NCBI RefSeq assembly: GCF_013167455.1
Contig: NZ_CP038328.1
Reading direction: 5' to 3' (one strand)
From: Escherichia coli O157:H7
GTDB lineage: Bacteria; Pseudomonadota; Gammaproteobacteria; Enterobacterales; Enterobacteriaceae
Length of the DNA: 64,000 nucleotides
This document shows, piece by piece, positions 1,773 through 22,414 of the stretch. Below the pieces are notes generated by a model. That model made no database searches and was not told where the DNA came from. It worked only from the letters and a program-made list of their open reading frames with translations. Both the position numbers and the translations under genes were made by a program. Each line of letters begins with the position of its first letter. Within the stretch, counting starts at the first letter, position 1.

Positions 1773-3664
<1,892 letters not shown>

Positions 3665-3678
3665 CTCCGGGAACGCTC

Positions 3679-4347
3679 ATGCAAGAAAGTATACAACTGG
3701 TTATTGATTCCTTGCCGTTCCTGCTGAAAGGGGCTGGGTATACGCTGCAACTCAGTATCGGCGGCATGTTTTTTGGTTTACTGCTAGGGTTTATTCTCGC
3801 GCTGATGCGCCTGTCGCCAATCTGGCCCGTGCGCTGGCTGGCGCGTTTTTATATCTCTATTTTTCGTGGTACGCCGCTCATCGCACAACTGTTTATGATC
3901 TATTACGGCCTGCCGCAGTTTGGTATCGAATTAGATCCCATTCCGTCAGCAATGATTGGTCTGTCGCTCAACACTGCCGCCTATACTGCCGAAACGCTTC
4001 GCGCCGCCATTTCTTCTATTGATAAAGGTCAGTGGGAAGCAGCTGCCAGTATTGGTATGACGCCATGGCAGACTATGCGTCGCGCGATTTTGCCACAGGC
4101 GGCGCGGGTGGCGTTGCCGCCGCTCTCGAACAGCTTTATCAGTCTGGTAAAAGATACGTCGCTGGCCGCGACAATCCAGGTGCCGGAGCTGTTCCGTCAG
4201 GCGCAGTTGATTACCTCGCGTACGCTGGAGGTATTCACCATGTATCTGGCGGCTTCGCTCATCTACTGGATCATGGCGACTGTGTTATCGACGTTGCAGA
4301 ACCATTTTGAGAATCAACTTAATCGCCAGGAGAGAGAACCCAAATGA
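3679..4347 (+). CDS. tcyL: L-cystine ABC transporter permease TcyL (YecS)
   Basis: 222-aa polar amino-acid ABC permease; stop overlaps the downstream ATPase start. Confidence 0.9.
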   Translation: MQESIQLVIDSLPFLLKGAGYTLQLSIGGMFFGLLLGFILALMRLSPIWPVRWLARFYISIFRGTPLIAQLFMIYYGLPQFGIELDPIPSAMIGLSLNTAAYTAETLRAAISSIDKGQWEAAASIGMTPWQTMRRAILPQAARVALPPLSNSFISLVKDTSLAATIQVPELFRQAQLITSRTLEVFTMYLAASLIYWIMATVLSTLQNHFENQLNRQEREPK

Positions 4348-5096
4348 GTGCCATTGAAGTTAAGAACCTAGTGAAAAAATTCCACGGTCAGACGGTGCTG
4401 CACGGTATCGACCTCGAGGTAAAGCCTGGCGAAGTGGTGGCAATTATCGGTCCGAGTGGTTCCGGCAAAACCACATTGCTACGTAGCATAAATCTGCTGG
4501 AACAACCGGAAGCGGGAACGATCACCGTTGGCGATATCACTATTGATACTGCACGTTCATTAAGTCAGCAAAAATCGCTGATTCGCCAGTTGCGTCAGCA
4601 CGTCGGGTTTGTCTTCCAGAACTTTAATTTGTTTCCGCATCGTACGGTGCTGGAGAACATTATTGAAGGGCCGGTGATCGTCAAAGGCGAACCGAAAGAA
4701 GAGGCCACGGCGCGCGCTCGCAAGCTGTTGGCGAAAGTTGGGCTGGCCGGTAAAGAAACCAGCTATCCACGTCGTTTGTCTGGCGGTCAACAGCAGCGTG
4801 TTGCGATTGCGCGTGCGCTGGCAATGCGTCCTGAGGTGATTTTGTTTGACGAGCCAACGTCAGCGCTGGATCCAGAGCTGGTGGGCGAAGTCCTGAACAC
4901 CATCCGTCAGCTGGCGCAGGAAAAGCGCACGATGGTGATTGTGACACACGAAATGAGCTTTGCCCGGGATGTTGCGGACCGGGCGATTTTTATGGACCAG
5001 GGGCGGATAGTCGAGCAGGGGGCCGCAAAAGCGTTATTTGCCGATCCCGAGCAGCCTCGCACCCGCCAGTTCCTCGAGAAGTTTCTGCTGCAATAA
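4344..5096 (+). CDS. tcyN: L-cystine ABC transporter ATP-binding protein TcyN (YecC)
   Basis: Walker A GPSGSGKTT, signature LSGGQQQR, Walker B ILFDEPTSALD. Confidence 0.9.
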   Translation: MSAIEVKNLVKKFHGQTVLHGIDLEVKPGEVVAIIGPSGSGKTTLLRSINLLEQPEAGTITVGDITIDTARSLSQQKSLIRQLRQHVGFVFQNFNLFPHRTVLENIIEGPVIVKGEPKEEATARARKLLAKVGLAGKETSYPRRLSGGQQQRVAIARALAMRPEVILFDEPTSALDPELVGEVLNTIRQLAQEKRTMVIVTHEMSFARDVADRAIFMDQGRIVEQGAAKALFADPEQPRTRQFLEKFLLQ

Positions 5097-5325
5097 TAAG
5101 AAAAAATCAGCCCCGACGATTCGACAGTCGGGGCGGAACGCCATTTCAAGCCTGATAAAACTGCTTAAAAAATCAGCATAACTCATTAATAACATAAGAG
5201 AATGCGATGGCTTGCAAAAGTAATTCATTGCCTGAATAATATAAATTATATATAAATCTTATTTATGTGATAGTTTGAATTATCATTATAAATGATACTC
5301 ACTCTCAGGGGCGTTGCGGTTTACT

Positions 5326-6048
5326 ATGCAGGATACGGATTTTTTCAGCTGGCGTCGCACGATGCTGTTGCGTTTTCAGAGGATGGAGACCGCAGAAGAG
5401 GTCTACCATGAAATTGAGCTTCAGGCTCAGCAGCTGGAGTACGATTACTATTCGTTATGTGTCCGCCACCCGGTACCATTCACTCGACCTAAAGTGGCTT
5501 TCTACACCAATTACCCTGAGGCGTGGGTTAGTTATTATCAGGCAAAAAACTTTCTCGCAATTGATCCGGTGCTGAACCCTGAAAACTTTAGTCAGGGCCA
5601 TCTAATGTGGAATGATGACTTATTCAACGAAGCACAGCCGTTATGGGAAGCCGCGCGCGCACATGGTTTACGCCGCGGTGTCACTCAGTATTTAATGCTG
5701 CCAAACCGGGCGCTGGGCTTTTTGTCCTTTTCCCGTTGCAGCGCGCGCGAAATACCCATTCTTAGTGATGAACTGCAATTAAAAATGCAGTTACTGGTGC
5801 GCGAAAGTCTGATGGCTCTGATGCGTTTAAATGATGAAATAGTGATGACGCCAGAGATGAATTTCAGCAAGCGCGAAAAAGAAATTCTGAGGTGGACGGC
5901 GGAAGGGAAGACATCAGCAGAGATAGCGATGATTTTGTCAATCTCTGAGAATACGGTCAATTTCCACCAGAAAAACATGCAGAAAAAAATTAATGCACCA
6001 AATAAGACCCAGGTTGCCTGTTACGCGGCCGCTACTGGCTTAATTTGA
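5326..6048 (+). CDS. sdiA: LuxR-family quorum-sensing regulator SdiA
   Basis: 240 aa from MQDTDFFSWRR...; autoinducer-binding domain plus C-terminal LuxR HTH. Confidence 0.9.
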   Translation: MQDTDFFSWRRTMLLRFQRMETAEEVYHEIELQAQQLEYDYYSLCVRHPVPFTRPKVAFYTNYPEAWVSYYQAKNFLAIDPVLNPENFSQGHLMWNDDLFNEAQPLWEAARAHGLRRGVTQYLMLPNRALGFLSFSRCSAREIPILSDELQLKMQLLVRESLMALMRLNDEIVMTPEMNFSKREKEILRWTAEGKTSAEIAMILSISENTVNFHQKNMQKKINAPNKTQVACYAAATGLI

Positions 6049-6075
6049 TCTCTTTTCTGTCCTGCGTGCCAGATG

Positions 6076-6113
6076 CAAAAACCGGCTGAAAGGCACGCTA
6101 TCAGCCGGTTTTA
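6076..6113. terminator. bidirectional rho-independent terminator between convergent sdiA and yecF
   Basis: aaaaaccggctga...tcagccggtttt: perfect stem flanked by A-run and T-run. Confidence 0.65.
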
Positions 6114-6115
6114 TA

Positions 6116-6340
6116 TTACTGACGGTAGGCTTGTTTAATTTGCTTAACCGTTTTGGAAAATACTGCAGCCTGGGTTTCGTCTTCGATCAGCGCAAGCTGT
6201 TGTTCCATCTTTAACATCACGCGGCCCGCGTCAGCTTGTCCCATCGCCTGCAGCATCAGCGTCAGCATCGCTTTCAGGCAGGAGACTTCATTTGCCAGTT
6301 CTTGATTATTCTCGGCAGTAGAAAAATCAGGCGTACTCAT
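6116..6340 (-). CDS. yecF: small protein YecF (DUF2594)
   Basis: 74-aa ORF on the minus strand in the conserved sdiA-yecF-uvrY position. Confidence 0.8.
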
Positions 6341-6798
6341 TTATTTTCCTCGTCATGTTGCAATGAAAATTTGCGGTGAAAAATGTTAAGGCGGCGGAGT
6401 ATACCATAAGCTTTGCTAAAAATAGCAGTGGTTGTTTTTTGAGCGTGCCGTCAACGGTGCTATTAAATGCGTTAATATAATGACCAATAAATATTTTTAT
6501 CATGAATGTTTTTTGCCCGTATTGTTCGGGTTAATTAATGTTACATATTCAGCGGGCTGATTTTCATTTTTGCTGAATAAAGGTAATTTTTGTCACATTT
6601 CGTCGCAGGGCTTACTGTGAAACGATCCGGTAAGCCGTTGGTGACGGGCGTGACCATAACTGTGGACAATCGAATTGACAAAAACGAGAGAAAAATCGAA
6701 TACCCACCATTTTTAACGTTTCAAAGTTGCAATAAAAACCGCTAATATACGAATGACTAACTATCAGTAGCGTTATCCCTATTTCTGGAGATATTCCT

Positions 6799-7455
6799 TT
6801 GATCAACGTTCTACTTGTTGATGACCACGAACTGGTGCGCGCAGGGATACGACGCATTCTGGAAGATATAAAGGGTATAAAAGTCGTCGGTGAGGCATCG
6901 TGCGGTGAAGACGCCGTTAAGTGGTGCCGGGCAAATGCCGTTGACGTGGTGCTAATGGACATGAGTATGCCGGGCATTGGCGGTCTTGAGGCGACGCGTA
7001 AAATCGCGCGTTCCACAGCTGATGTAAAAATCATCATGCTTACCGTCCATACAGAAAACCCTTTACCAGCGAAAGTCATGCAGGCCGGTGCTGCGGGCTA
7101 CCTCAGCAAAGGCGCGGCTCCGCAGGAAGTCGTGAGTGCGATCCGTTCTGTCTATTCTGGGCAGCGTTACATTGCTTCTGACATCGCTCAACAAATGGCA
7201 TTAAGCCAGATCGAACCAGAAAAAACAGAAAGCCCATTTGCCAGTTTGTCTGAACGTGAATTGCAGATTATGCTGATGATCACGAAGGGCCAGAAGGTCA
7301 ATGAGATCTCAGAACAGCTCAATCTCAGTCCGAAAACGGTGAACAGCTACCGCTATCGTATGTTCAGTAAACTAAACATTCATGGCGATGTTGAGCTGAC
7401 TCACCTGGCAATTCGCCATGGTCTGTGTAATGCGGAGACATTATCAAGTCAGTGA
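6799..7455 (+). CDS. uvrY: two-component response regulator UvrY (NarL/FixJ family; BarA partner)
   Basis: TTG start; receiver domain (VDDH...D) plus LuxR-type HTH; 218 aa. Confidence 0.9.
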
Positions 7456-9284
7456 GTGATCAGTTTGACGCAAAAGCGTTTTTAAAAACCGTAACCAGCC
7501 AGCCTGGCGTTTATCGCATGTACGATGCTGGTGGTACGGTTATCTATGTCGGCAAAGCGAAAGACCTGAAAAAACGGCTTTCCAGCTATTTCCGTAGCAA
7601 CCTCGCTTCGCGCAAAACCGAAGCGCTGGTCGCCCAGATCCAGCAAATTGATGTAACGGTTACTCATACAGAAACCGAAGCGCTGTTGCTGGAACACAAC
7701 TACATCAAACTCTATCAGCCGCGTTACAACGTTTTGCTACGCGATGATAAATCATATCCTTTTATCTTCCTGAGTGGCGATACCCACCCGCGTCTGGCGA
7801 TGCATCGTGGTGCAAAGCATGCCAAAGGTGAATATTTCGGCCCGTTCCCGAATGGCTATGCCGTACGTGAAACACTGGCGCTACTGCAAAAGATTTTCCC
7901 CATTCGCCAGTGCGAAAATAGTGTTTATCGCAATCGCTCGCGTCCGTGTCTGCAATATCAGATAGGGCGCTGTCTGGGACCGTGCGTTGAAGGACTGGTG
8001 AGTGAAGAAGAATACGCTCAGCAGGTCGAGTATGTGCGCCTGTTTTTGTCTGGCAAAGATGATCAGGTGCTTACGCAACTCATTAGCCGTATGGAAACTG
8101 CCAGTCAGAATCTGGAGTTTGAAGAAGCGGCACGTATTCGCGACCAAATTCAGGCGGTGCGACGCGTCACCGAAAAACAATTCGTTTCCAATACCGGCGA
8201 CGACCTCGACGTTATTGGTGTGGCGTTCGATGCGGGTATGGCTTGTGTCCACGTATTGTTCATTCGTCAGGGCAAAGTGCTCGGCAGCCGCAGCTATTTC
8301 CCGAAAGTGCCTGGCGGTACGGAACTGAGCGAGGTGGTAGAAACCTTCGTAGGCCAGTTCTATTTACAAGGCAGCCAGATGCGCACCTTACCGGGTGAGA
8401 TCCTGCTCGATTTTAATCTTAGCGATAAAACGCTGCTCGCCGATTCCCTTTCAGAACTGGCGGGACGCAAGATTAATGTTCAAACCAAACCTCGTGGCGA
8501 TAGGGCGCGTTACCTGAAACTCGCGCGCACCAATGCGGCGACGGCCTTAACCAGCAAACTTTCGCAGCAATCTACCGTTCACCAGCGGCTTACAGCACTT
8601 GCCAGCGTGTTGAAATTGCCGGAAGTGAAGCGGATGGAGTGCTTTGACATCAGCCATACCATGGGTGAACAAACCGTCGCTTCCTGTGTGGTGTTTGATG
8701 CTAACGGCCCGCTGCGTGCGGAGTATCGGCGCTATAACATTACTGGCATCACGCCGGGCGATGATTATGCGGCGATGAATCAGGTGCTGCGTCGGCGTTA
8801 TGGTAAAGCCATCGACGACAGTAAGATCCCGGATGTGATACTTATCGACGGCGGCAAAGGCCAGCTTGCGCAGGCGAAAAATGTCTTCGCCGAACTGGAT
8901 GTCTCATGGGATAAAAATCATCCGCTGCTACTTGGTGTTGCCAAAGGAGCAGATCGTAAGGCTGGGCTGGAAACGCTGTTCTTTGAGCCGGAAGGTGAGG
9001 GATTCAGTTTGCCGCCAGATTCTCCCGCGCTGCATGTTATCCAGCATATTCGCGATGAATCACACGATCACGCGATTGGCGGGCACCGTAAAAAACGGGC
9101 GAAGGTCAAAAATACCAGTTCCCTGGAAACCATTGAAGGCGTCGGGCCAAAACGCCGGCAAATGTTGTTGAAATATATGGGCGGTTTGCAAGGTTTACGT
9201 AACGCCAGCGTCGAGGAAATTGCAAAAGTGCCGGGTATTTCGCAAGGTCTGGCAGAAAAGATCTTCTGGTCGTTGAAACATTGA
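7452..9284 (+). CDS. uvrC: excinuclease ABC subunit C
   Basis: 610 aa; GIY-YIG N-terminus ([22 protein letters not shown]), UvrC signature, C-terminal HhH. Confidence 0.95.
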
Positions 9285-12400: not shown

Positions 12401-13291
12401 TCAGGCTGCCAGATCATCGTTTCCGATGGAAGCATAATAAGCTTTTTCTGCTTCTGCCGGAGGAGTATGGCCCAGCCTTCCCAGCAATCGTCGATTGTTA
12501 TACCAGTCCACCCACGTTAGTGTGGCCAGTTCCACTTCTGCACGGTTTTTCCAGCTCTTACGGTGTATTACCTCCGCTTTGTAAAGACCATTGATGCTCT
12601 CAGCCATCGCGTTGTCATACGAGTCGCCTGTACTCCCTGTTGATGCCAGTAATCCGGCTTCTTTTAGTCGCTCCGTATAGGCCAGTGACACATACTGAGA
12701 GCCTTTATCGCTGTGATGGATGGTGCCAGACGGACGACGGGCCCACAACGCCTGCTCCAGCGCATCCAGCACGAATGTCGTTTCCATAGACGATGAGACC
12801 CGCCACCCCACGATGTATCCGGCAAACACATCAATGATAAACGCCACATAGACGAAGCCCTGCCATGTGCTGACGTAAGTAAAATCAGCCACCCACAGCT
12901 GGTCAGGTCGTTCTGCCACGAACTGACGGTTTACGCGGTCGCCTGCGGCAACGGCTTTCCGGCTGATGGTCGTACGGACCTTTTTACCCCGGAGAACACC
13001 GGCAAGTCCCATAACCGCCATGAGACGTGCCACTGTACATCTGGCCACCCTGATTCCTTCCCGTAACAACTGACGCCAGACTTTACGCACACCGTACACC
13101 TGATGATTTTCATCGTATACGCGCTGTATCTCTCTCTTCAGCCAGTCGTCGTGCTGCGCACGGGCACTGCGTTTATCCGGATGATGTCGCTGTTGCTGAC
13201 AATGGTAATACGTTGACGGGGCAATATGCAGTTCGCTGCATACCGGTCCGACCCCGTACTGCTCACGCAGCTTATCCAGCAGTGGCATCAT
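12401..13291 (-). CDS. IS3-family transposase OrfB (DDE integrase domain)
   Basis: 296 aa, [16 protein letters not shown]...; rve-type catalytic domain recognised. Confidence 0.85.
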
Positions 13292-13614
13292 TTTTTCCAG
13301 AGGCGGTCGAACTCCGCCTTCGCAAAATAAGCGGAAGCCTGGCGAAGGATATCGTTACTGCGGCGCAGTTCACGATTTTCACGTTCCAGCTCTTTCAGAC
13401 GCTGACGTTCAGCGCTGGTGAGCCCACCATCACCGCCCCCGGTATCCCGCTCATGCTGGCGAACCCAGACACGCAGAGTCTCCGGCGTACAGCCAATCTT
13501 TGGGGCAATGGAACAAATTGCCGCCCACTGTGAGTCATATTCATCCTGACTTTCCAGAACCATACGAATCGCCCGCTGACGGACTTCGGGGGAAAAACGA
13601 GTATTTTTAGTCAT
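13288..13614 (-). CDS. IS3-family transposase OrfA (HTH / leucine zipper)
   Basis: 108 aa, [22 protein letters not shown]...; overlaps orfB as expected for a -1 frameshift fusion. Confidence 0.85.
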
Positions 13615-13668
13615 CCTGTTTACCTCTTTCTCAGGGAGTTTAGTCTCCAGGATTTCCGGGGCGGTTCA

Positions 13669-14354
13669 ACACGATGGCTGAGGCGATTACCTACCGCCAG
13701 AAATTCAACGAACGTGAGGTGATGCTCTTATGGCCTGACTTCATCGCCTACAACCTGAAAAGTGGCAAAAACGAAACGTTCCCCGCGCCTGCTTATGCGT
13801 GCGGCCTTCGTGCGTACATTGACCATGAGCAGGGCTGGCACAAATCGCTGTCCAACGTTCCGGTTAAAAATGTGCTTGGGATGTCGAGGCATGTGTTCTG
13901 GTCGTTGCAGGCCGAAGACAGTGATGCCAACAGCCTCAACAACAAAGAAATCACGACCATTATTCGTCGCAACGGGTTCCGCTTCTGGGGCAACCGCACA
14001 CCGGAAACGAACGCCTACATCTTTGAGGTGTATACCCGAACCGCACAGGTGCTGGCTGATTCAATTGCGGAAGCGCAGTTTGAAACCATCGACAGTCCAC
14101 TGACACCTGCGAACGTGAAGGATGTTATCAGTGCCATCAGGGCAAAACTGGATTCACTGGTTACTGCCGGGAAACTGATTGGCGCGGAGTGCTGGTATGA
14201 CATCGAGGATAACAGCACCACGAATTTACGTCAGGGGCGTGTGCGTATTCGCTACAAATATACGCCCGTTCCTCCGCTGGAAGACATGGAGCTTTACCAG
14301 TCGTTTACTGATGAATTCTTTGGTCCCGCATTTGCGGTGCTGGGAGGTGCCTGA
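13669..14354 (+). pseudogene. P2 FI-like contractile tail sheath, C-terminal fragment (5' end cut off by IS629 copy 1)
   Basis: 226 codons continuing straight from the IS junction; resembles the sheath C-terminus; a full sheath is ~390 aa. Confidence 0.7.
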
Positions 14355-14866
14355 TGGCTGTACCAAAACATCTTCGCTTTTTTACGCTGTTTGTGGATGG
14401 TGAAAACGAAGTGGGTAAGGTGACGTCCGTCACCCTGCCTAAACTGACGCGCAAAACCGACAGCTACCGGGGTGGTGGCATGATGGGTGCGGTAAGTATT
14501 GACCTCGGCCTGGACGACTCCGCGCTTGATGCGAGCTTTGTCATGGGGGGCGCAGTTCGTGAGCTGTTCCTGAAGTATGGCGGCACGATTGACGGCACGC
14601 TACTGCGTTTTGCGGGGGAATACTACACCGATGATGAAAGCGACCTGTATGAAGTCGAAATGCGCGGACGTGTGACGGAAATTGATATGGGGGAAGCCAA
14701 ACAGGGCGAAGCCACATCACACACTTACGCCATTAAAAACACCTACTACAAGCTGAGTGTTAACGATCGCCCGTTGTGGGAGATTGACCTGCTGAACTTC
14801 ATTTACCGGAAGGACGGCAAGGACATTGTGCCCGATCGCATCCGTTCCGCGCTTGGGCTTGGCTGA
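14354..14866 (+). CDS. P2 FII-like tail tube protein
   Basis: 170 aa; TLPKLTRK...YRGGGMMGA...DLGLDD motif pattern of P2 FII. Confidence 0.8.
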   Translation: MAVPKHLRFFTLFVDGENEVGKVTSVTLPKLTRKTDSYRGGGMMGAVSIDLGLDDSALDASFVMGGAVRELFLKYGGTIDGTLLRFAGEYYTDDESDLYEVEMRGRVTEIDMGEAKQGEATSHTYAIKNTYYKLSVNDRPLWEIDLLNFIYRKDGKDIVPDRIRSALGLG

Positions 14867-14920
14867 TAAGTAATATGCAGGCGGCGCAGTGCGTCGCCTC
14901 TGACTGAAAGGAGTTTCCTG

Positions 14921-15450
14921 ATGAAAGAGACGAAAAACATCGATACCGAAAACACGGTAGTTACTGACACTGTGAAAGAAACCAGTGAGCGTGGTGTAAA
15001 ACTTACCCAACCAATTGAGCGAGGCGGCGAAAAAATCACGTATGTGGAGATCACCGGGGCTATTGAGCAGGCTGGATCTCTGCGAGATTTGTCGCTGTCT
15101 GATGTGCTGAATCTGAAAGCGGAATCCATGTTTACGCTGCTGTCACGCGTGACATCACCGCGACTGGATGAAGTGACGATCAAAAAAATGGCATCCCGTG
15201 ACTTTATTCAGTTATGTGTGGTTGCCGTAAATTTTTTGAGCGGTGCGGACTCTGGCGGGAAGAACGAACAGGCGACGGAAGCCTGATCACGGTTGTGTGC
15301 TTTGAGCACATAGAAGACTTTGTGGCAGATATTGCCGTTATTTTTAACTGGTCGCCCGCCGAAATCTTCATGATGACGCCCGGCGAAGTGGTTAGCTGGC
15401 GTGAGCGGGCGGCACTTCGCAGCGGGAATGCAGACAATGAAGACTCTTGA
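14921..15450 (+). CDS. tail assembly chaperone GpE and its -1 frameshift product E+E' (slippery T TTT TTG at 15232-15238)
   Basis: E frame ends at 15286; an overlapping -1 frame ORF (15214-15450) begins at the TTTTTTG heptamer, the conserved P2 E/E' recoding arrangement just upstream of the tape measure gene. Confidence 0.65.
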
Positions 15451-17527
15451 TATCCGGGTCGCTTTCAGCGCCGTTGACAGGCTGACCCGACCTGCCGAAA
15501 ACGCACGCCGCCTGATGGGGCAGTTTGGTGACTCCATCCAGCGAACGCAGGGGGCGATCAAAAATCTCGAGCGTCAGGCGCGATCATTTGAGCGCGCCCG
15601 CGACGCTGTCAGTAAAGCGGATGCTGGCATCGTGAAAGCACGACGCCAGCTTAACGCCCTTAATCAGTTACAACGCACGGGTACAGTGCTCAGCGAAAAA
15701 CAACAAAAGCTGATGCAGCAGTTAAGCACCCGGCTTGAACGCCTGAATGAATCGCGCACACGGGAAATTCAGAAAATGAGGGAACTTGGCGGAGAGCTGA
15801 AACGCCACGGCATTTCCCTGACAGGCAGCGATAACACCATTCAGCAGGCCATCAGACGCACCGAACAATACAACAACCAGCTTGAACGCGAACGGCAGGC
15901 GCTTGCGCGTGTAACGCAGGCGCGTGAGCGGTATTCGCACGCGCAGGAAACCGCGGGAAAACTGAAAACAGGTGGTGCGCTGGCAATTGGTGCGGCAGCG
16001 GCGGGCGGCTATGCTGCCGGGCGTTTTTTGCAGCCTGCGATCGGGTTCGGCAAAGAGATGTCCCGCGTTCAGGCACTGACGCGAATCGACAAAAACAGCC
16101 CGCAGTTTAAGGCGCTGCGTGAGCAGGCGTTAAAACTTGCTGAAACACAGTTTACTGCGAGTGATGCCGCCAGTGGGCAGAGCTTTCTGGCAATGGCTGG
16201 TTTTACTCCGCAGGCCATTCAGGCCGCATTGCCCGGTGTTCTTAATATGGCGCTGGCAGGTGGCGTCGAACTCGGCGAGACGGCTGATATAGGCTCCAAT
16301 ATCCTCACACAGTTCAACCTGACAGCCGATCAAATGGACCGGGTGGGCGATACGCTGACAGCAGCATTTACCCGGACCAATACTGATTTACGCGCGCTGG
16401 GCGAAACCATGAAGTATACCGGTCCGGTTGCCGCAAAACTTGGTATCAGTCTTGAAGAAGCGGCGGCCATGGCCGGGATGCTTGCCAATAATGGTCTTCG
16501 CGGAAGCGATGCTGGCACGGCCATGCGCGCAAGTCTGTCCCGCCTTGCATCACCGCCAAAAGCTGCGGCTGATGCACTGAAAGAGCTGGGGGTGTCAGTT
16601 GCTGACGCCAGAGGCAAAATGCGCCCGATGGAGGATGTGCTGCTTGATCTCTATAAGGCGACACAAAAATACGGACAGGTGGACCAGGTCTCCTTCTTCA
16701 AGGACATCGCCGGAGAAGAGGCGTTCGTTGGTTTGCAGACGCTTGTTGCGGCGGCTGGTTCAGGAGAGCTGCAAAAACTGACCAGAGAATTGCAGGGGGC
16801 AAGGGGAGAGGCCGATCGCGTCGCAAAAGTAATGGCTGATAATCTTGATGGGGACCTGAAAAATCTCGACAGCGCATGGGAAGGTCTTCGTATTCGCATC
16901 AGTGATCTGGTTGACGGTCCGCTGCGTTCTGTCACGCAGTGGCTCACGCGGGTGCTTGAAAAAATCACCTCGCTGGCGCAGGCCCATCCGGTACTGACGC
17001 GCCAGCTACTGATAGCAGGCGGTGCGTTGCTGGCAATGACTGCAACGATTGGCTCGTTGTCGCTGGTTATTGGGGTGCTTTACGGGAAGCTGGCCACCCT
17101 GCGTCTTGGTTTTGACATTCTTACCCGGTCAATGAATGTCGTCAGGGTGTTACCTGCGCTATGGGGAATGGTGACGGGTTCCGTTTCTTTACTGGGAGGC
17201 GTTATCGGGGCGTTGTTCAGTCCGGTTGGTCTTATCGTGGCTGCGCTTGCCGGAGCTGCCGTTCTTATCTGGAAATACTGGGATCCTATCAGGGCTTTCT
17301 TTGCCGGGGTGTTCAGCGGGATTATGGAAAGGCTGACCCCGTTGCGCGACACCTTTGAACGGTTTGGCCCTGTTTTTGACGTAATCGGAAGCGGTTCAGC
17401 CAGGTGTTTAACTGGTTTAAATCGCTGCTGTCACCGATGGAGTCCAGCAAGGAAACGCTGGATAAATGTACCAGTGCTGGCGAGGTATTCGGTAACGTTC
17501 TTGGTGGTGCGTTACAGCTTGTTCTGA
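15401..17527 (+). CDS. tail tape measure protein (GpT-like), N-terminal reading frame
   Basis: 708 codons, coiled-coil rich with hydrophobic segments; position after E/E'. Frame changes near 17380-17527. Confidence 0.75.
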   Translation: MSGRHFAAGMQTMKTLDIRVAFSAVDRLTRPAENARRLMGQFGDSIQRTQGAIKNLERQARSFERARDAVSKADAGIVKARRQLNALNQLQRTGTVLSEKQQKLMQQLSTRLERLNESRTREIQKMRELGGELKRHGISLTGSDNTIQQAIRRTEQYNNQLERERQALARVTQARERYSHAQETAGKLKTGGALAIGAAAAGGYAAGRFLQPAIGFGKEMSRVQALTRIDKNSPQFKALREQALKLAETQFTASDAASGQSFLAMAGFTPQAIQAALPGVLNMALAGGVELGETADIGSNILTQFNLTADQMDRVGDTLTAAFTRTNTDLRALGETMKYTGPVAAKLGISLEEAAAMAGMLANNGLRGSDAGTAMRASLSRLASPPKAAADALKELGVSVADARGKMRPMEDVLLDLYKATQKYGQVDQVSFFKDIAGEEAFVGLQTLVAAAGSGELQKLTRELQGARGEADRVAKVMADNLDGDLKNLDSAWEGLRIRISDLVDGPLRSVTQWLTRVLEKITSLAQAHPVLTRQLLIAGGALLAMTATIGSLSLVIGVLYGKLATLRLGFDILTRSMNVVRVLPALWGMVTGSVSLLGGVIGALFSPVGLIVAALAGAAVLIWKYWDPIRAFFAGVFSGIMERLTPLRDTFERFGPVFDVIGSGSARCLTGLNRCCHRWSPARKRWINVPVLARYSVTFLVVRYSLF

Positions 17528-18240
17528 CGCCTGCAAAAATGTTGCTGGATACGCTGGCGTGGATACTTGAAAAACTCGGTGTGCTTCCGGATGAAGCGGA
17601 AAGGGCGCGCAAGAAAATCGAAGACGCACAACGTGCGGCCATTCTTCAGGACAAGGTTGCTCTGTTTCAGGGAGACATTGCGAAAATCAATCCGCCGAAG
17701 TCTGCGGGAAATAGCAATGGCACCGGAGATGATAAACCCAAAGACAACAAACCTCTCACAGACAGCAATACCGGCACGCTACGCAGACTCAGCAAAATTG
17801 CTGATAACACAGGTAAGCTGGTTGATGAGACAAAAAAACGCATTGGCCCCGGCGATATTGTCTTTAAGAACCTGCCCCGCGCACTTGCTGTTCGTGGGGA
17901 GTGGCAGGAGCGGAAGATTGCGCAGGTCAGTAAGCCTGCCCCCGCAATTAATATCACACCCGTGGTCCCGGCTCCGCTGCCTCCGGCGCTGGTCCCTGTT
18001 GTTGCGGCCAGCTCCCGCCCGGTGGTGGAGGCCATACGATCGCCAGTGGCATCAGTTCCTGCAACTTCCCGTAACCGGGAGCCTGTTGCCTCCGGATTTG
18101 GCGGTGAAATTCATGTTCATCTGCATAACGTTGTTACGCAGAATCCCCGCGAACTGGCGAAACTGGTCGGCGAAATGGTCAGGGCAGAAATGGAACGGCG
18201 CGCCCGTGCCAGGCGTGGCAGTTTTTACGATAAAGATTGA
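17404..18240 (+). CDS. tail tape measure protein, C-terminal segment in a different frame (apparent frameshift)
   Basis: 278 codons in the +2 frame relative to the upstream part; this frame opens after a stop at 17377-17379. Confidence 0.6.
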   Translation: MFNWFKSLLSPMESSKETLDKCTSAGEVFGNVLGGALQLVLTPAKMLLDTLAWILEKLGVLPDEAERARKKIEDAQRAAILQDKVALFQGDIAKINPPKSAGNSNGTGDDKPKDNKPLTDSNTGTLRRLSKIADNTGKLVDETKKRIGPGDIVFKNLPRALAVRGEWQERKIAQVSKPAPAINITPVVPAPLPPALVPVVAASSRPVVEAIRSPVASVPATSRNREPVASGFGGEIHVHLHNVVTQNPRELAKLVGEMVRAEMERRARARRGSFYDKD

Positions 18241-18246
18241 GGAGTC

Positions 18247-18741
18247 ATGGCCATGATGATGATCTACGGCATGTTTGTTTTTGAGCTGCGCACGTTGCCG
18301 CATCAGCAGTTACAGCAAAACAAAAGCTGGCGACATGTGAAAAATGAACGCGTTAACCGTTCAGCAAGCTGGCAGTATATCGGTGCAGGTGATGATCGCA
18401 TCGTTCTTTCTGGTGTTCTTTATCCTGAGATTACTGGTGGCGAAGTGTCGCTGTCGTTGTTGACCACGCAGGCATATACAGGACGTCCTTGGCCTTTGAT
18501 TGATGGCGTCGGGCAGATTTACGGCATGTATGTCCTGACCGGAACGAATACGACCCGCTCCGAGTTTGATCGCTACGGTAAGGCGAAAAAGATAGAATTT
18601 TCACTGACTCTTGAACGCTGTGATGAGGATTTGCGGGAGCGCCTGCAATCCTCATCGTTCAGCGATATGCTGTCCGGCTTCAAAGATAAGGTGACATCAT
18701 CCCTTAATAGCGCGGCCAGCTCAGTTAAGGGGCTGCTCTGA
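18247..18741 (+). CDS. P2 GpU-like tail protein
   Basis: 164 aa; MMMIYGMFVFELRTLPHQQLQ... resembles P2 U. Confidence 0.8.
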   Translation: MAMMMIYGMFVFELRTLPHQQLQQNKSWRHVKNERVNRSASWQYIGAGDDRIVLSGVLYPEITGGEVSLSLLTTQAYTGRPWPLIDGVGQIYGMYVLTGTNTTRSEFDRYGKAKKIEFSLTLERCDEDLRERLQSSSFSDMLSGFKDKVTSSLNSAASSVKGLL

Positions 18742-18864
18742 TTTAACGTATGTCGCCAATTTCCTGATGAAGGTGACTGGCGACTTGCTGTTGTATGTCC
18801 TTCTCAGAAAATTGTTTTTGAATAACAAATAACAGGATTTTATAATCTCTTAACCTTATAACAT

Positions 18865-19470
18865 GTGTGGTCTGAAATAATAATTAAGGAGATTATCGTG
18901 CTATCTTACTTAATGGCAATTCACTTTGTTTTATTTGGAAACTCTACTAATTTAAAAAACTTCTGGAAACATGAAGTAATTCGGCGGAAACGTATGGATA
19001 TCTGGAGGCTTTTAAGAGAGAAAAAGCAGCGTAACCGGAATTTCCTTTTCTGGTGGCGGTTGGCTAACGAAATGTATATTAATGGTAATAAATTACATAA
19101 GAAAGCAGCCAAAAAGTTAAACAGTAAAATAATTAACAAGTTTGGTTGTGAAATAGGATTGGGCGCAAATATTGGAAAAGGGTTGACAATTCCCCATCAT
19201 GCTGGAATTGTTGTTCATTTTGCTGTTGATGCGGGTGAAAATCTGGTATTACGACAGAATACTACCATTGGACAGATAGATGGTGATATGCCTAGTTCAA
19301 GAGTAAAAATTGGTAGTAACGTTGATATCGGAGCTAATTGTTGCATCATTGGATTATCACGTAAAATTGGGGATAATGTAAAAATAGGTGCAATGTCTTT
19401 TATAAATAAAGATATACCATCAAACTGCACATATATAACTAAAAAGAGTGGTGTTGTATTGTATAAATAG
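18865..19470 (+). CDS. left-handed beta-helix (hexapeptide-repeat) O-acetyltransferase, CysE/WcaB/NeuO-like (prophage cargo)
   Basis: Hexapeptide repeats (IGANIGKG...IGSNVDIGANCCIIG...IGDNVKIGAMS); strongly AT-rich; the true start may be an internal Met. Confidence 0.65.
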   Translation: MWSEIIIKEIIVLSYLMAIHFVLFGNSTNLKNFWKHEVIRRKRMDIWRLLREKKQRNRNFLFWWRLANEMYINGNKLHKKAAKKLNSKIINKFGCEIGLGANIGKGLTIPHHAGIVVHFAVDAGENLVLRQNTTIGQIDGDMPSSRVKIGSNVDIGANCCIIGLSRKIGDNVKIGAMSFINKDIPSNCTYITKKSGVVLYK

Positions 19471-19513
19471 AGTACATAAAGCCATCGATATTTCTGTCGA
19501 TGGCTTTTTCTTT

Positions 19514-19930
19514 TTATTGTGGGGCGACTGGCCACTCAACATCCGCTGCTACTGTTGTATCAACACGATTCAACAATACCCGATATGTCTTCCATGCAGC
19601 CAGTAACGATGCCTCTTCCTCCGTCGCAATATCCAAATCTACGGCATCCTGAAGTGGCGCAATATGCTCACTGGCTACCTGCATCAGGCTGTTTTTTGTT
19701 TCTTCTGCCTCCCGTACCCGAAACAGTTTTTCTGCTTCTGCATCTTTCGCCCAGGATGTGCCGTTCCACTTCTGACACTCTCCATCCGGCGACAACCAGG
19801 TAACATTTTCCGGTAACGGACCGAGTTCAGAAATAAATAACGCGTCGCCGGAAGCCACGTCATAAACCGTTTTACCCCGATGATCTTCAACGAGATGCCA
19901 CGATGCCTCATTACTGTTGAAAACAGCCAC
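19514..19930 (-). CDS. tail fibre assembly protein (Tfa family), 5'-truncated; the reading frame continues upstream to 20046 without a start
   Basis: C-terminal Tfa region recognised; the upstream frame 19931-20046 translates [38 protein letters not shown] and runs into IS629 copy 2. Confidence 0.75.
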
Positions 19931-20046
19931 GAAGCCAGCCGGAATATCTGGCGGTGCAATATCGGTACTGTTTGCTGGCAGACCTGTATGAGGCGGAATG
20001 TATGCGTCACCTTCACCAATAAATTCATTAGTTCCGGCCAGCAGAT

Positions 20047-21104
20047 TGAACCGCCCCGGGAATCCTGGAGACTAAACTCCCTGAGAAAGAGGTAAACAGG
20101 ATGACTAAAAATACACGTTTTTCCCCCGAGGTCCGTCAACGGGCAGTCCGTATGGTTCTGGAAAGTCAGGGCGAATATGACTCACAATGGGCGGCAATTT
20201 GTTCCATTGCCCCAAAGATTGGCTGTACACCAGAGACTCTGCGTGTGTGGGTTCGTCAGCATGAGCGGGATACCGGGGGCGGTGATGGTGGACTCACCAC
20301 CGCTGAACGTCAGCGTCTGAAAGAGCTGGAACGTGAAAATCGTGAACTGCGCCGCAGTAACGATATCCTTCGCCAGGCTTCCGCTTATTTTGCGAAGGCG
20401 GAGTTCGACCGCCTCTGGAAAAAATAATGCCGCTGCTGGATAAGCTGCGTGAGCAGTACGGGGTCGGACCGGTATGCAGTGAACTGCATATTGCCCCGTC
20501 AACGGATTACCACTGTCAGCAACAGCGACATCATCCGGATAAACGCAGTGCCCGTGCGCAGCGCGATGACTGGCTGAAGAGAGAGATACAGCGCGTATAC
20601 GATGAAAATCATCAGGTGTACGGTGTGCGTAAAGTCTGGCGCCAGTTGTTACGCGAAGGTATCAGGGTGGCCAGATGTACAGTGGCGCGCCTCATGGCGG
20701 TTATGGGACTTGCCGGTGTTCTCCGGGGTAAAAAGGTCCGTACTACCGTCAGCCGGAAAGCCGTTTCCGCAGGCGACCGCGTAAACCGTCAGTTCGTGGC
20801 AGAACGTCCTGACCAGCTGTGGGTGGCTGATTTTACTTACGTCAGCACATGGCAGGGCTTCGTCTATGTGGCGTTCATCATTGATGTGTTTTCCGGATGT
20901 ATCGTGGGGTGGCGAGTCTCATCGTCTATGGAAACGACATTCGTGCTGGATGCACTGGAGCAGGCGTTGTGGGCCCGTCGGCCGTCCGGCACAGTCCATC
21001 ACAGTGATAAAGGTTCTCAGTATGTATCACTGGCCTATACGGAGCGACTAAAAGAAGCAAAACTGCTGGCATCAACAGGGAGTACAGGTGACTCGTATGA
21101 CAAT
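20047..21104 (+). mobile_element. IS3-family IS629-like element, copy 2, 3'-truncated (~1058 of ~1310 bp), inverted relative to copy 1
   Basis: Left IR TGAACCGCCCCGGGAATCCTGGAG at 20047; similarity to copy 1 stops after ...gactcgtatgacaa (~21104). Confidence 0.85.
20101..20427 (+). CDS. IS3-family transposase OrfA
   Basis: 108 aa, nearly identical to copy 1 OrfA (a few substitutions). Confidence 0.85.
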
Positions 21105-21116
21105 GTATTTTATTAG
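20427..21116 (+). pseudogene. IS3-family transposase OrfB, C-terminally truncated
   Basis: 229 codons versus 296 in copy 1; diverges after ...[11 protein letters not shown]. Confidence 0.8.
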
Positions 21117-21135
21117 TTCACATACAATTATCAGA

Positions 21136-21450
21136 TTATTCTGGGAATAAGGTCTGAATATTCTTTTTTATTTTATAAAAATTGCATTCAACTCCGCTAG
21201 GCTGATTAGCCTGGTATGTTTCCTTGATGCTAACGGTATTGAAGGGGAGGTTGTCCTCTGGCCATTCGGCCATCCAGTAGGCAAATGCTGGGTTGCGCTT
21301 TATGAGTGCTAGCCCAGCCAGAAAGGCCGCGCGTTGCGCGCGGCTGCGTTCGGAGGCTGGCAGGCTATCGAGGTAATTGCACGCCTCCTGTTCACTCTTG
21401 ACGGCGGCGGGCTTCAGATAGAAACTTATCCGTCTGGTTGGTGTCGTCAT
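21136..21450 (-). CDS. ParR/StbB-like centromere-binding adaptor of a type II partition system
   Basis: 104 aa; RRISFYLKP...LDSLPASERSRAQRAAFLAGLALIKRNP resembles plasmid R1 ParR (recalled from memory). Confidence 0.65.
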   Translation of the reverse strand: MTTPTRRISFYLKPAAVKSEQEACNYLDSLPASERSRAQRAAFLAGLALIKRNPAFAYWMAEWPEDNLPFNTVSIKETYQANQPSGVECNFYKIKKNIQTLFPE

Positions 21451-21454
21451 TGGT

Positions 21455-22414
21455 TTACTCCTTGTTCATTGCGTACAACCCATTAACCAGAGCAAACTGT
21501 GGCACCCCGTCCGCGATGAAAGTCGCATTAACTCCGCAGGCTTCGCGGATAGCGGTTGCCACAATCTCCGCCCCGCCACCGACAACCATCACCCGCCCGT
21601 AACCCGAAAAAACCGCCAGCGCGCGGATCACGCGTTGTTTCAGTGTTTCTTCCTTTTCACGAATAACCGCCATCAGGCTGGCGTAATGCGCGTCATTGTG
21701 GATGTGCTGGCGCAGCCAGGCTTCATCATGGCGATGTTCGATAATGGTATTGGCGATGTGGTGACTGGTGCGCATACCGTTAGTGGCCATCACCGACAGT
21801 ACGGCATCGGCCATCAGAGAAACGCCTACGTGTGGATCGCAAAACACCTGGCTGATACCTGCCAGTTGCCCCTGAACCTTTGCCACATCCAGCGTGGTTC
21901 CGCCCAAATCCACAATCAGCAGGGATTCAAACGGACTCATGTCAGCCAGTGCCTTAAAGCCAGCAGGAATGGATTCAGGCATAACCCGTACGTTACGGAT
22001 AGTGAATGCTTCGCCGTTCTGGTACTCCACCGGGCGCATGACGTTCGCTTTTTTGCGGTTGATGTTGGCCATGTCCGGCTGTGCGTTTGTATCGAAATAC
22101 TCGCTCAGTGGCAGGGTGACAACCACATCCACTTCCTGTGGTGTGATGCCTGATTTGACCAGCGCGTGATGAATGGCAATTACATTCACATCGCTGTACT
22201 GGTATTGCGTGTCGGTCGTCTGGACAAAGCGATCGCTGACCGGATCAAAACCATAGCGCACGCCATCAAGCATGTAGTTCGCGGGCTGCGTGCCACCGAA
22301 TGGCGCAGACCATTCCGACTTGAAGCTGTTCGGGCTGATGGCGTTGCGGCGTTCGCCGTTCTCAGTCCATGCCAGCTTGATGTTGGTGGAGCCGTCGTCG
22401 ATACAAATTTTCAT
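21455..22414 (-). CDS. ParM/StbA-like actin-family partition ATPase
   Basis: 319 aa; actin-fold motifs IDDGSTNIK (phosphate 1), LIVDLGGTTLD (phosphate 2), VMVVGGGA (adenosine). Confidence 0.75.
   Translation of the reverse strand: MKICIDDGSTNIKLAWTENGERRNAISPNSFKSEWSAPFGGTQPANYMLDGVRYGFDPVSDRFVQTTDTQYQYSDVNVIAIHHALVKSGITPQEVDVVVTLPLSEYFDTNAQPDMANINRKKANVMRPVEYQNGEAFTIRNVRVMPESIPAGFKALADMSPFESLLIVDLGGTTLDVAKVQGQLAGISQVFCDPHVGVSLMADAVLSVMATNGMRTSHHIANTIIEHRHDEAWLRQHIHNDAHYASLMAVIREKEETLKQRVIRALAVFSGYGRVMVVGGGAEIVATAIREACGVNATFIADGVPQFALVNGLYAMNKE

Follow-up and report, generated by a model that had tools for sequence, protein, structure and literature searches.

An acetyltransferase gene of the CysE clade in a moron position of an Escherichia coli O157:H7 P2-like prophage: a candidate modifier of a conserved envelope glycan

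The window analysed here, a 64-kb stretch of the E. coli O157:H7 chromosome that is identical in sequence to NZ_CP038414 and to many other O157 genomes, contains a decayed P2-like prophage near uvrC/yecA. Within this prophage an acetyltransferase gene lies between the tail gene gpU and an inverted tail fibre assembly gene (tfa), as the initial annotation had stated (Table 1). That annotation opened its feature at 18742, which is simply the base following the gpU stop codon because 18742-18897, the 156-nt spacer between this stop and the CDS, is non-coding. It also described an ORF of 201 codons. An ORF of that length is present, being the longest one and opening at GTG 18865, but the supported start is the GTG at 18898, which yields a protein of 190 aa: the motif AAGGAG is found 5 nt before it, homologues share the start position, and in the P1-type copies homology to the window begins exactly at 18899.

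Table 1. Features of the acetyltransferase locus (window coordinates)
Feature	Position	Strand	Remarks
gpU tail gene	18247-18741	+	Upstream neighbour of the acetyltransferase gene; last gene of the inverted FI-U tail block
Sigma-70-like promoter (predicted)	18818-18846	+	TTGAAT, 17-nt spacer, TATAAT; 10/12 matches; ~50 nt 5' of the start codon
Shine-Dalgarno AAGGAG	18887-18892	+	5 nt 5' of the GTG start; sequence reading
Acetyltransferase CDS	18898-19470	+	190 aa plus stop; identical to WP_000954203.1
Intrinsic terminator (predicted)	19478-19517	+	Hairpin with 13-bp stem at 19478-19507, then a T-run
tfa (P2 G / Tfa family)	19514-20044	-	PHROG 105, tail fiber assembly; convergent with the acetyltransferase gene
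IS3-family (IS1203/IS629-like) transposase remnant	20101-21116	+	
Mobile module (promoter, acetyltransferase gene, terminator, tfa)	18816-20047		blastn boundaries; 79-92% nt identity to non-P2 phage backbones

A gap of 43 nt separates the acetyltransferase stop codon from the convergent tfa, and the predicted terminator falls between the two convergent stop codons (terminator-like sites numbered 2, against 0.7 expected). On the 5' side the promoter call is a consensus match of a kind not enriched over shuffled sequences. It gains support because the boundary of the mobile cassette coincides with it, the sequence shared with three non-P2 contexts (L053, L061 and L062) beginning at 18814-18816, just 5' of the -35 element. 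The composition of the gene also sets it apart, with a GC content of 0.34 (GC3 of 0.28) compared with 0.50 for gpU and tfa and 0.56 for T, bearing out the initial description of a gene much more AT-rich than its flanks. The same annotation had reported no phase-variable heptanucleotide repeats, and Tandem Repeats Finder (minimum score 30) likewise returned no tandem or heptanucleotide repeats in 18600-19600. With its own promoter-like site, Shine-Dalgarno sequence and intrinsic terminator, a GC content outside the 0.50-0.56 of its neighbours, and the P2 gene fun(Z) at the same site, the acetyltransferase gene resembles a classic moron.

The tail genes FI, FII, E/E', T (frameshifted) and U run on the + strand of the window and end at 18741. 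In P2, fun(Z) is found directly downstream of G and convergent with it, at a site that was named "moron position 2" by Wiles et al. and that holds neaT in strain CFT073 (PMC3573123). The fun locus was described by Vassallo et al. as a second defence-enriched hotspot of P2-like phages (PMC9519451). Relative to G/tfa, the acetyltransferase gene sits in the same slot as fun(Z), so that the inserted cargo next to tfa of the initial annotation is indeed cargo beside tfa, but in a standard P2 moron position and not at a special insertion. The other flank is U and not FI because the FI-U block is inverted with respect to P2 in this prophage lineage. Compared with P2 (L167), inversion of the FI-FII-E-T-U tail operon (~13000-18741) leaves D divergent from FI, with U abutting the moron site. 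An IS-mediated inversion specific to O157 was considered as the origin of the U-acetyltransferase-tfa order and was rejected, the same order being present in many non-O157 prophages. Dozens of viral contigs from outside O157 have it, as does an O104:H4 prophage (L166) that looks intact and in which D is full-length and on the opposite strand. The FI-U inversion is a native trait of a widespread P2-like lineage of E. coli, and no rearrangement of O157.

Several other parts of the prophage are degraded or replaced. T (15401-18240) is split by a frameshift into ORFs at 15401-17527 and 17404-18240, is called a pseudogene in RefSeq, and is intact in non-O157 relatives. The IS3-family remnant (20044-21116) cuts the 5' end of tfa, homology to full-length tfa copies stopping at 20047, and has taken the place of fibre, baseplate, lysis and head genes, ~16 kb in all, that strain PV15-279 has retained; in intact relatives, fibre, baseplate and head genes follow tfa. 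A plasmid-type parR/parM pair (21136-22414, - strand) adjoins the replication gene A of the integrated prophage; in the O104:H4 relative, the same pair occupies the A-Q "old/tin" cargo hotspot. Many acetyltransferase-carrying prophages additionally encode, between fibre gene H and tfa, a 300-aa "macro domain-containing protein" (L001:21502-22404; deleted from the window) that has a C-terminal HxH fibre-tip motif and belongs to PHROG 2613, of unknown function; from its sequence it resembles a distal fibre subunit whose head is an enzymatic macro domain.

A prophage so heavily degraded (T frameshifted, D and tfa truncated, IS elements) might carry the acetyltransferase gene as a decaying, functionless passenger. 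The ORF has nevertheless stayed intact alongside these lesions, a 100% identical copy is found in at least 273 genomes, the catalytic motifs described below are conserved, and comparisons with alleles of 70-98% identity give pairwise dN/dS values of 0.03-0.16. By this measure the gene is under purifying selection, and we consider a functionless passenger highly improbable. Of 5426 complete E. coli genomes, in a database that is biased towards pathogens, 529 carry close alleles, which occupy 533 chromosomal and 66 plasmid sites. Near-identical copies occur in O157(:H7), O26, O103(:H2), O111 and O104(:H4) strains, a distribution that leaves the serotype conversion suggested by the initial annotation doubtful. 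O-antigen-specific conversion was rejected as the leading idea on the ground that the gene is shared by many serogroups.

The 190-aa protein consists of a basic helical N-domain (residues 1-82) followed by a left-handed β-helix acetyltransferase domain (residues 83-180). Because Pfam returned weak Hexapep matches alone, the fold assignment rests on NCBIfam, on PDB searches and on an AlphaFold2 model. The best-scoring NCBIfam families are EpsC (E-value of 2e-21), cysE (5e-17) and WcaB (4e-15), and the scores lie under the curated cut-off in each case: 76.2 bits vs 150 for EpsC, 62.4 vs 210.65 and 36.6 vs 397 bits for cysE (TIGR01172 and NF008349), and 55.8 vs 196 and 54.4 vs 194.65 bits for WcaB, a family that is further defined by location in the wca operon, whereas the gene here is prophage cargo. 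In PDB sequence searches CysE chains alone matched strongly (1.5e-12 for the single-sequence query, 8e-24 for a profile of 45 family members), the matches covering CysE from residues ~110-140 onward. LacA/MAT-type chains reached 4e-13 or worse with the family profile, ~10 orders of magnitude behind CysE, and NeuO was absent among the best 60 PDB matches with this profile. The AlphaFold2 model (pLDDT of 84, pTM of 0.83) places five helices in residues 1-82 ahead of the β-helix, and a Foldseek search with the model returned CysE structures exclusively (TMq of 0.65-0.70). Of the "CysE/WcaB/NeuO-like" β-helix proposed in the initial annotation, the CysE/WcaB type is retained and NeuO, whose LacA/MAT/NodL clade matches far worse, is not. 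The protein has no Pfam match to Acyl_transf_3 (AT3) and no transmembrane segment (maximum 19-residue Kyte-Doolittle hydropathy of 1.1). Its N-domain is very basic, with a pI of 11.4 compared with a family median of 10.6. Among PHROGs it matches phrog_2154 strongly (3e-87), a family of unknown function.

When the protein is aligned to three CysE structures, the catalytic residue His158 (E. coli numbering) falls at His100, which is >90% conserved in the family, and Asp143 at Glu85, a position that is always D or E; the catalytic dyad positions of CysE are retained at His100/Glu85. The serine-binding residues, known like the catalytic pair from published CysE structures, show a different pattern: Asp157 corresponds to Pro99 in a variable column, and Arg192/His193 correspond to Ser134/Arg135, within the loop that varies most. 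Of the CysE N-domain, the last two helices are present. An intact CysE N-terminal domain, by which the initial annotation would have recognized a cytoplasmic serine acetyltransferase, was not found: the 190-aa protein has no Pfam match to SATase_N, and the model shows only 5 helices in 82 residues. The C-terminal CysK-binding tail of CysE is also missing.

These features bear on whether the protein is a genuine minimal serine O-acetyltransferase, that is, the product of an auxiliary metabolic gene that raises the supply of O-acetylserine/cysteine or perturbs CysB/CysK signalling. Its RefSeq name (WP_000954203.1, "serine O-acetyltransferase"), the CysE identity of its closest solved structures and best-scoring named families (CysE and relatives), the two retained N-domain helices and the dyad are all in keeping with such an enzyme. 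However, a score of 62 bits falls well short of the cysE cut-off, neither SATase_N nor the CysK-binding tail is present, the equivalents of Asp157 and Arg192/His193 are not conserved, relatives lie beside glycan genes (see below), and the identical sequence is called "LbetaH domain-containing protein" in newer PGAP runs. We therefore regard a serine acetyltransferase as improbable. Since the scores lie below every curated family cut-off, the RefSeq name is probably an over-annotation. The protein is better described, from alignment and model, as a putative soluble CysE-clade acetyltransferase in which the catalytic core is intact and the acceptor pocket differs, and a moron encoding a non-serine acetyltransferase is, in our judgement, quite probable.

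The gene travels with tfa. Outside P2-like phages the two are found as a module of 79-92% nt identity that extends from 18816 or 18899 to 20047, and P1-like, phiNP-like and other backbones carry it as well as P2-like ones. In the P1-like phage-plasmids JL22 (L150) and L055 the gene is inside the invertible C segment, between two alternative tfa genes, and in L055 the segment (3402-8865) is bounded by 602-nt inverted repeats with an adjacent Cin-type invertase; from this location it follows that the orientation of the gene relative to the late fibre operon flips with host range. A fixed version of the P1-type arrangement is carried on a 98.7-kb plasmid, and the module is also present in the DinI-flanked phage contigs L053 and L061. 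In Citrobacter phage phiNP a diverged homologue (44% aa identity) has the same convergent position, after hicAB. Of 50 distinct family sequences from IMG/VR, 44 had informative contexts; a convergent tfa lies within 53 nt in 29 of the 44, down to 44% identity, and the remaining 15, plasmid and chromosomal singletons among them, have no adjacent tfa. In Salmonella viral contigs (L140-L143) the homologue follows fibre and tfa genes co-directionally; in these contigs a second moron, annotated in PHROGs as enoyl-CoA hydratase/carnitine racemase-like, lies in between. The fibre genes beside the module mostly end in the HxH fibre tip (P2 H / P1 S / Mu S / lambda Stf family), while the tips themselves vary. 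Further family members are found at the end of a P2-like prophage after hok, in a 186-like phage after int and an Abi gene, and on EPEC-type plasmids downstream of type IV pilus genes; others are chromosomal singletons. The scan of genome contigs, in which ~21 of the 80 loci listed were true family members and the rest generic CysE-like genes, was used for individual contexts and not for statistics. What is most interesting about this gene is that it has repeatedly been co-transferred with tfa and that it lies inside the P1 host-range switch.

Clues to the acceptor come from relatives of 44-63% identity, and not from the surroundings of the O157 allele itself. In Xenorhabdus bovienii prophages a relative precedes a GT25 glycosyltransferase gene and faces a tail fibre gene. 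In two 45-kb phage contigs a relative is convergent with a YibB/HtrL protein (above the curated cut-off), beyond which lie tail chaperone and fibre genes. Among the matches listed, a Photorhabdus relative precedes the gene of a WaaZ-like protein (78 bits, under the cut-off), a Pseudomonas neustonica relative is part of a glycan cluster that also encodes PseI, an ATP-grasp protein and a GT4 transferase, and one relative adjoins a PtuA-like ATPase, which points to a defence context instead. Low GC is typical of E. coli polysaccharide genes, although this is weak evidence. Taken with the tfa/fibre linkage, the LPS and glycan neighbours of the relatives lend indirect support to a surface-glycan modification linked to phage adsorption. 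The presence of a single cassette in many serogroups and several genera favours a conserved acceptor such as the LPS core, ECA, colanic acid or a common first sugar.

The neighbourhoods also suggest that the gene could serve in intracellular anti-phage defence or competition, with a small molecule, nucleotide or protein, belonging to an invading phage or to the host, acetylated in place of a surface glycan. To our knowledge no β-helix acetyltransferase acts as a defence effector, which counts against this proposal, and PADLOC-DB v2 gave 0 matching defence families even at E<=1. The glycan-enzyme neighbours and the family member within a glycan cluster likewise point elsewhere. On the other side, the fun locus is a defence-enriched hotspot (PMC9519451) and P2 fun(Z) blocks T5, relatives adjoin hicAB, an Abi-family gene, hok and the PtuA-like ATPase, and the very basic N-domain could bind nucleic acid. 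Weighing these points we find a defence role rather unlikely.

A further alternative is that the surface is modified but that selection acts on the interaction with the host (immune evasion, aggregation or colonisation) and not on phage exclusion, in parallel with neaT of CFT073. That gene is found in the same P2 moron position and orientation, has 30% GC, and was reported to raise fitness in bacteraemia and to alter aggregation (PMC3573123). The retention of an intact acetyltransferase gene in a dead prophage across O157:H7, and its presence in O26, O103, O111 and O104:H4, would fit such a role. However, NeaT is a non-homologous membrane AT3 enzyme, the occurrence in pathogens is coloured by the bias of the genome database towards them, and the persistent fibre/tfa linkage, including that inside the P1 host-range switch, better fits a phage-centred role. 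We consider selection for host interaction unlikely.

In the literature we found no functional study of the family, which appears there in annotation-level mentions only, and no acetylation or exclusion phenotype for it. A term look-up in Rousset et al. 2022 gave no mention of the gene, and the O157 proteome supplement has no usable entry for it. In the phiNP annotation the homologue is ORF4, labelled "fitness", and the authors describing JL22 state that the reason for the gene's presence is still unknown.

Our best explanation is that the moron encodes a cytoplasmic O-acetyltransferase that acts on a conserved envelope glycan and thereby changes phage adsorption and/or host interaction; we hold this whole chain of steps tentatively, as a reading that falls slightly short of an even chance. 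In this mechanism the lysogen would express, from the gene's own promoter, a soluble acetyl-CoA-dependent O-acetyltransferase of the CysE/WcaB/EpsC β-helix clade, and this enzyme would presumably form trimers, as others of the fold do. L-serine would not be its acceptor; the most likely candidate would be a sugar in a conserved envelope glycan whose assembly takes place at the cytoplasmic side of the inner membrane, either the LPS core or an undecaprenyl-linked or nucleotide-linked precursor. The basic helical N-domain may dock the active site (His100 with Glu85) at the anionic, membrane-bound, lipid-linked substrate, allowing the acetyl group to be transferred from acetyl-CoA to a sugar hydroxyl, with His100 as the base, before export. 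The altered surface might then change adsorption, especially that of phages with the Tfa-dependent fibre type that travels with the gene, and/or change interactions with the host.

Some observations sit less comfortably with this mechanism. The linkage to tfa could reflect hitch-hiking at a permissive site, as 15 of the 44 contexts lack an adjacent tfa and the fibre tips vary, and the promoter is a consensus match in sequence where such matches are not enriched over shuffles. Moreover, the LPS-core O-acetylases known to us are membrane AT3 proteins, with no β-helix enzymes among them, and we know of no O-acetyl group reported in the E. coli R3 core or in the O157 antigen.

A more specific form of the acetylation model is that the enzyme masks a receptor in step with the fibres. 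The β-helix O-acetyltransferase would acetylate the LPS core or another conserved glycan seen by Tfa-dependent fibres, would move with tfa as one module between P2-, P1- and phiNP-type phages, and in P1-like phage-plasmids would have its masking coupled to host-range switching. If real, this version, which we think unlikely as a whole, would be a receptor-masking device linked to the fibres, of a type so far undescribed in E. coli.

About 1 in 10 complete E. coli genomes contain the gene or an allele close to it, routinely labelled "serine O-acetyltransferase". If a conserved envelope glycan is acetylated as proposed, the gene would be an unrecognised lysogenic-conversion factor, one that could affect phage susceptibility (relevant to phage therapy and to STEC phage typing), LPS-based serology and possibly host interaction. 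That a gene in this prophage slot can have a host effect is illustrated by the non-homologous neaT in CFT073. Co-transfer with tfa and the position in the P1 host-range switch offer a testable link between the phage adsorption apparatus and the surface chemistry of the lysogen.

Comparison with known systems places the enzyme and its presumed role in different company. WcaB and EpsC, the best-scoring named families, resemble the protein in size (~160-200 aa), in joining a short helical N-region to a CysE-type β-helix and in being cytoplasmic; they differ in belonging to polysaccharide operons, whereas the acetyltransferase gene is a single-gene cassette on phages and plasmids that encodes an unusually basic N-domain. 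The protein is set apart from WcaB by profile scores and from NeuO by PDB clade matches. CysE provides the closest solved structures and shares the His/Asp dyad positions and the last N-domain helices, but it has the full N-domain, the serine-binding residues and the C-terminal CysK-binding tail that the O157 protein lacks. The initial annotation offered Sf6 Oac and NeuO as precedents, and as homologues both are poor, Oac being a membrane AT3 protein and NeuO a member of another clade. Sf6 Oac and the phage AT3 O-antigen acetylases are similar in the proposed role, lysogenic conversion by O-acetylation. They belong to an unrelated superfamily of membrane proteins and work at the periplasmic side, while the O157 protein is without a transmembrane segment or an AT3 domain. 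NeuO of prophage CUS-3, which modifies the K1 capsule, is a phage-borne soluble β-helix O-acetyltransferase encoded near a tail adsorption gene and remains a precedent for the conversion of a surface polysaccharide by a cytoplasmic β-helix enzyme; it differs in its LacA/MAT clade, its heptanucleotide phase-variation repeats and its phage type, and the O157 gene is not tied to K1. Finally, neaT and P2 fun(Z) occupy the same slot convergent with G, are strongly AT-rich and are non-essential for the phage. neaT encodes an acyltransferase with surface-related and virulence phenotypes (PMC3573123), but it is an integral-membrane AT3 protein (PF01757) and fun(Z) is unrelated, so that neither is homologous to the O157 protein. 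By analogy we propose a WcaB/EpsC-like enzyme whose biological role may be like that of NeuO or neaT.
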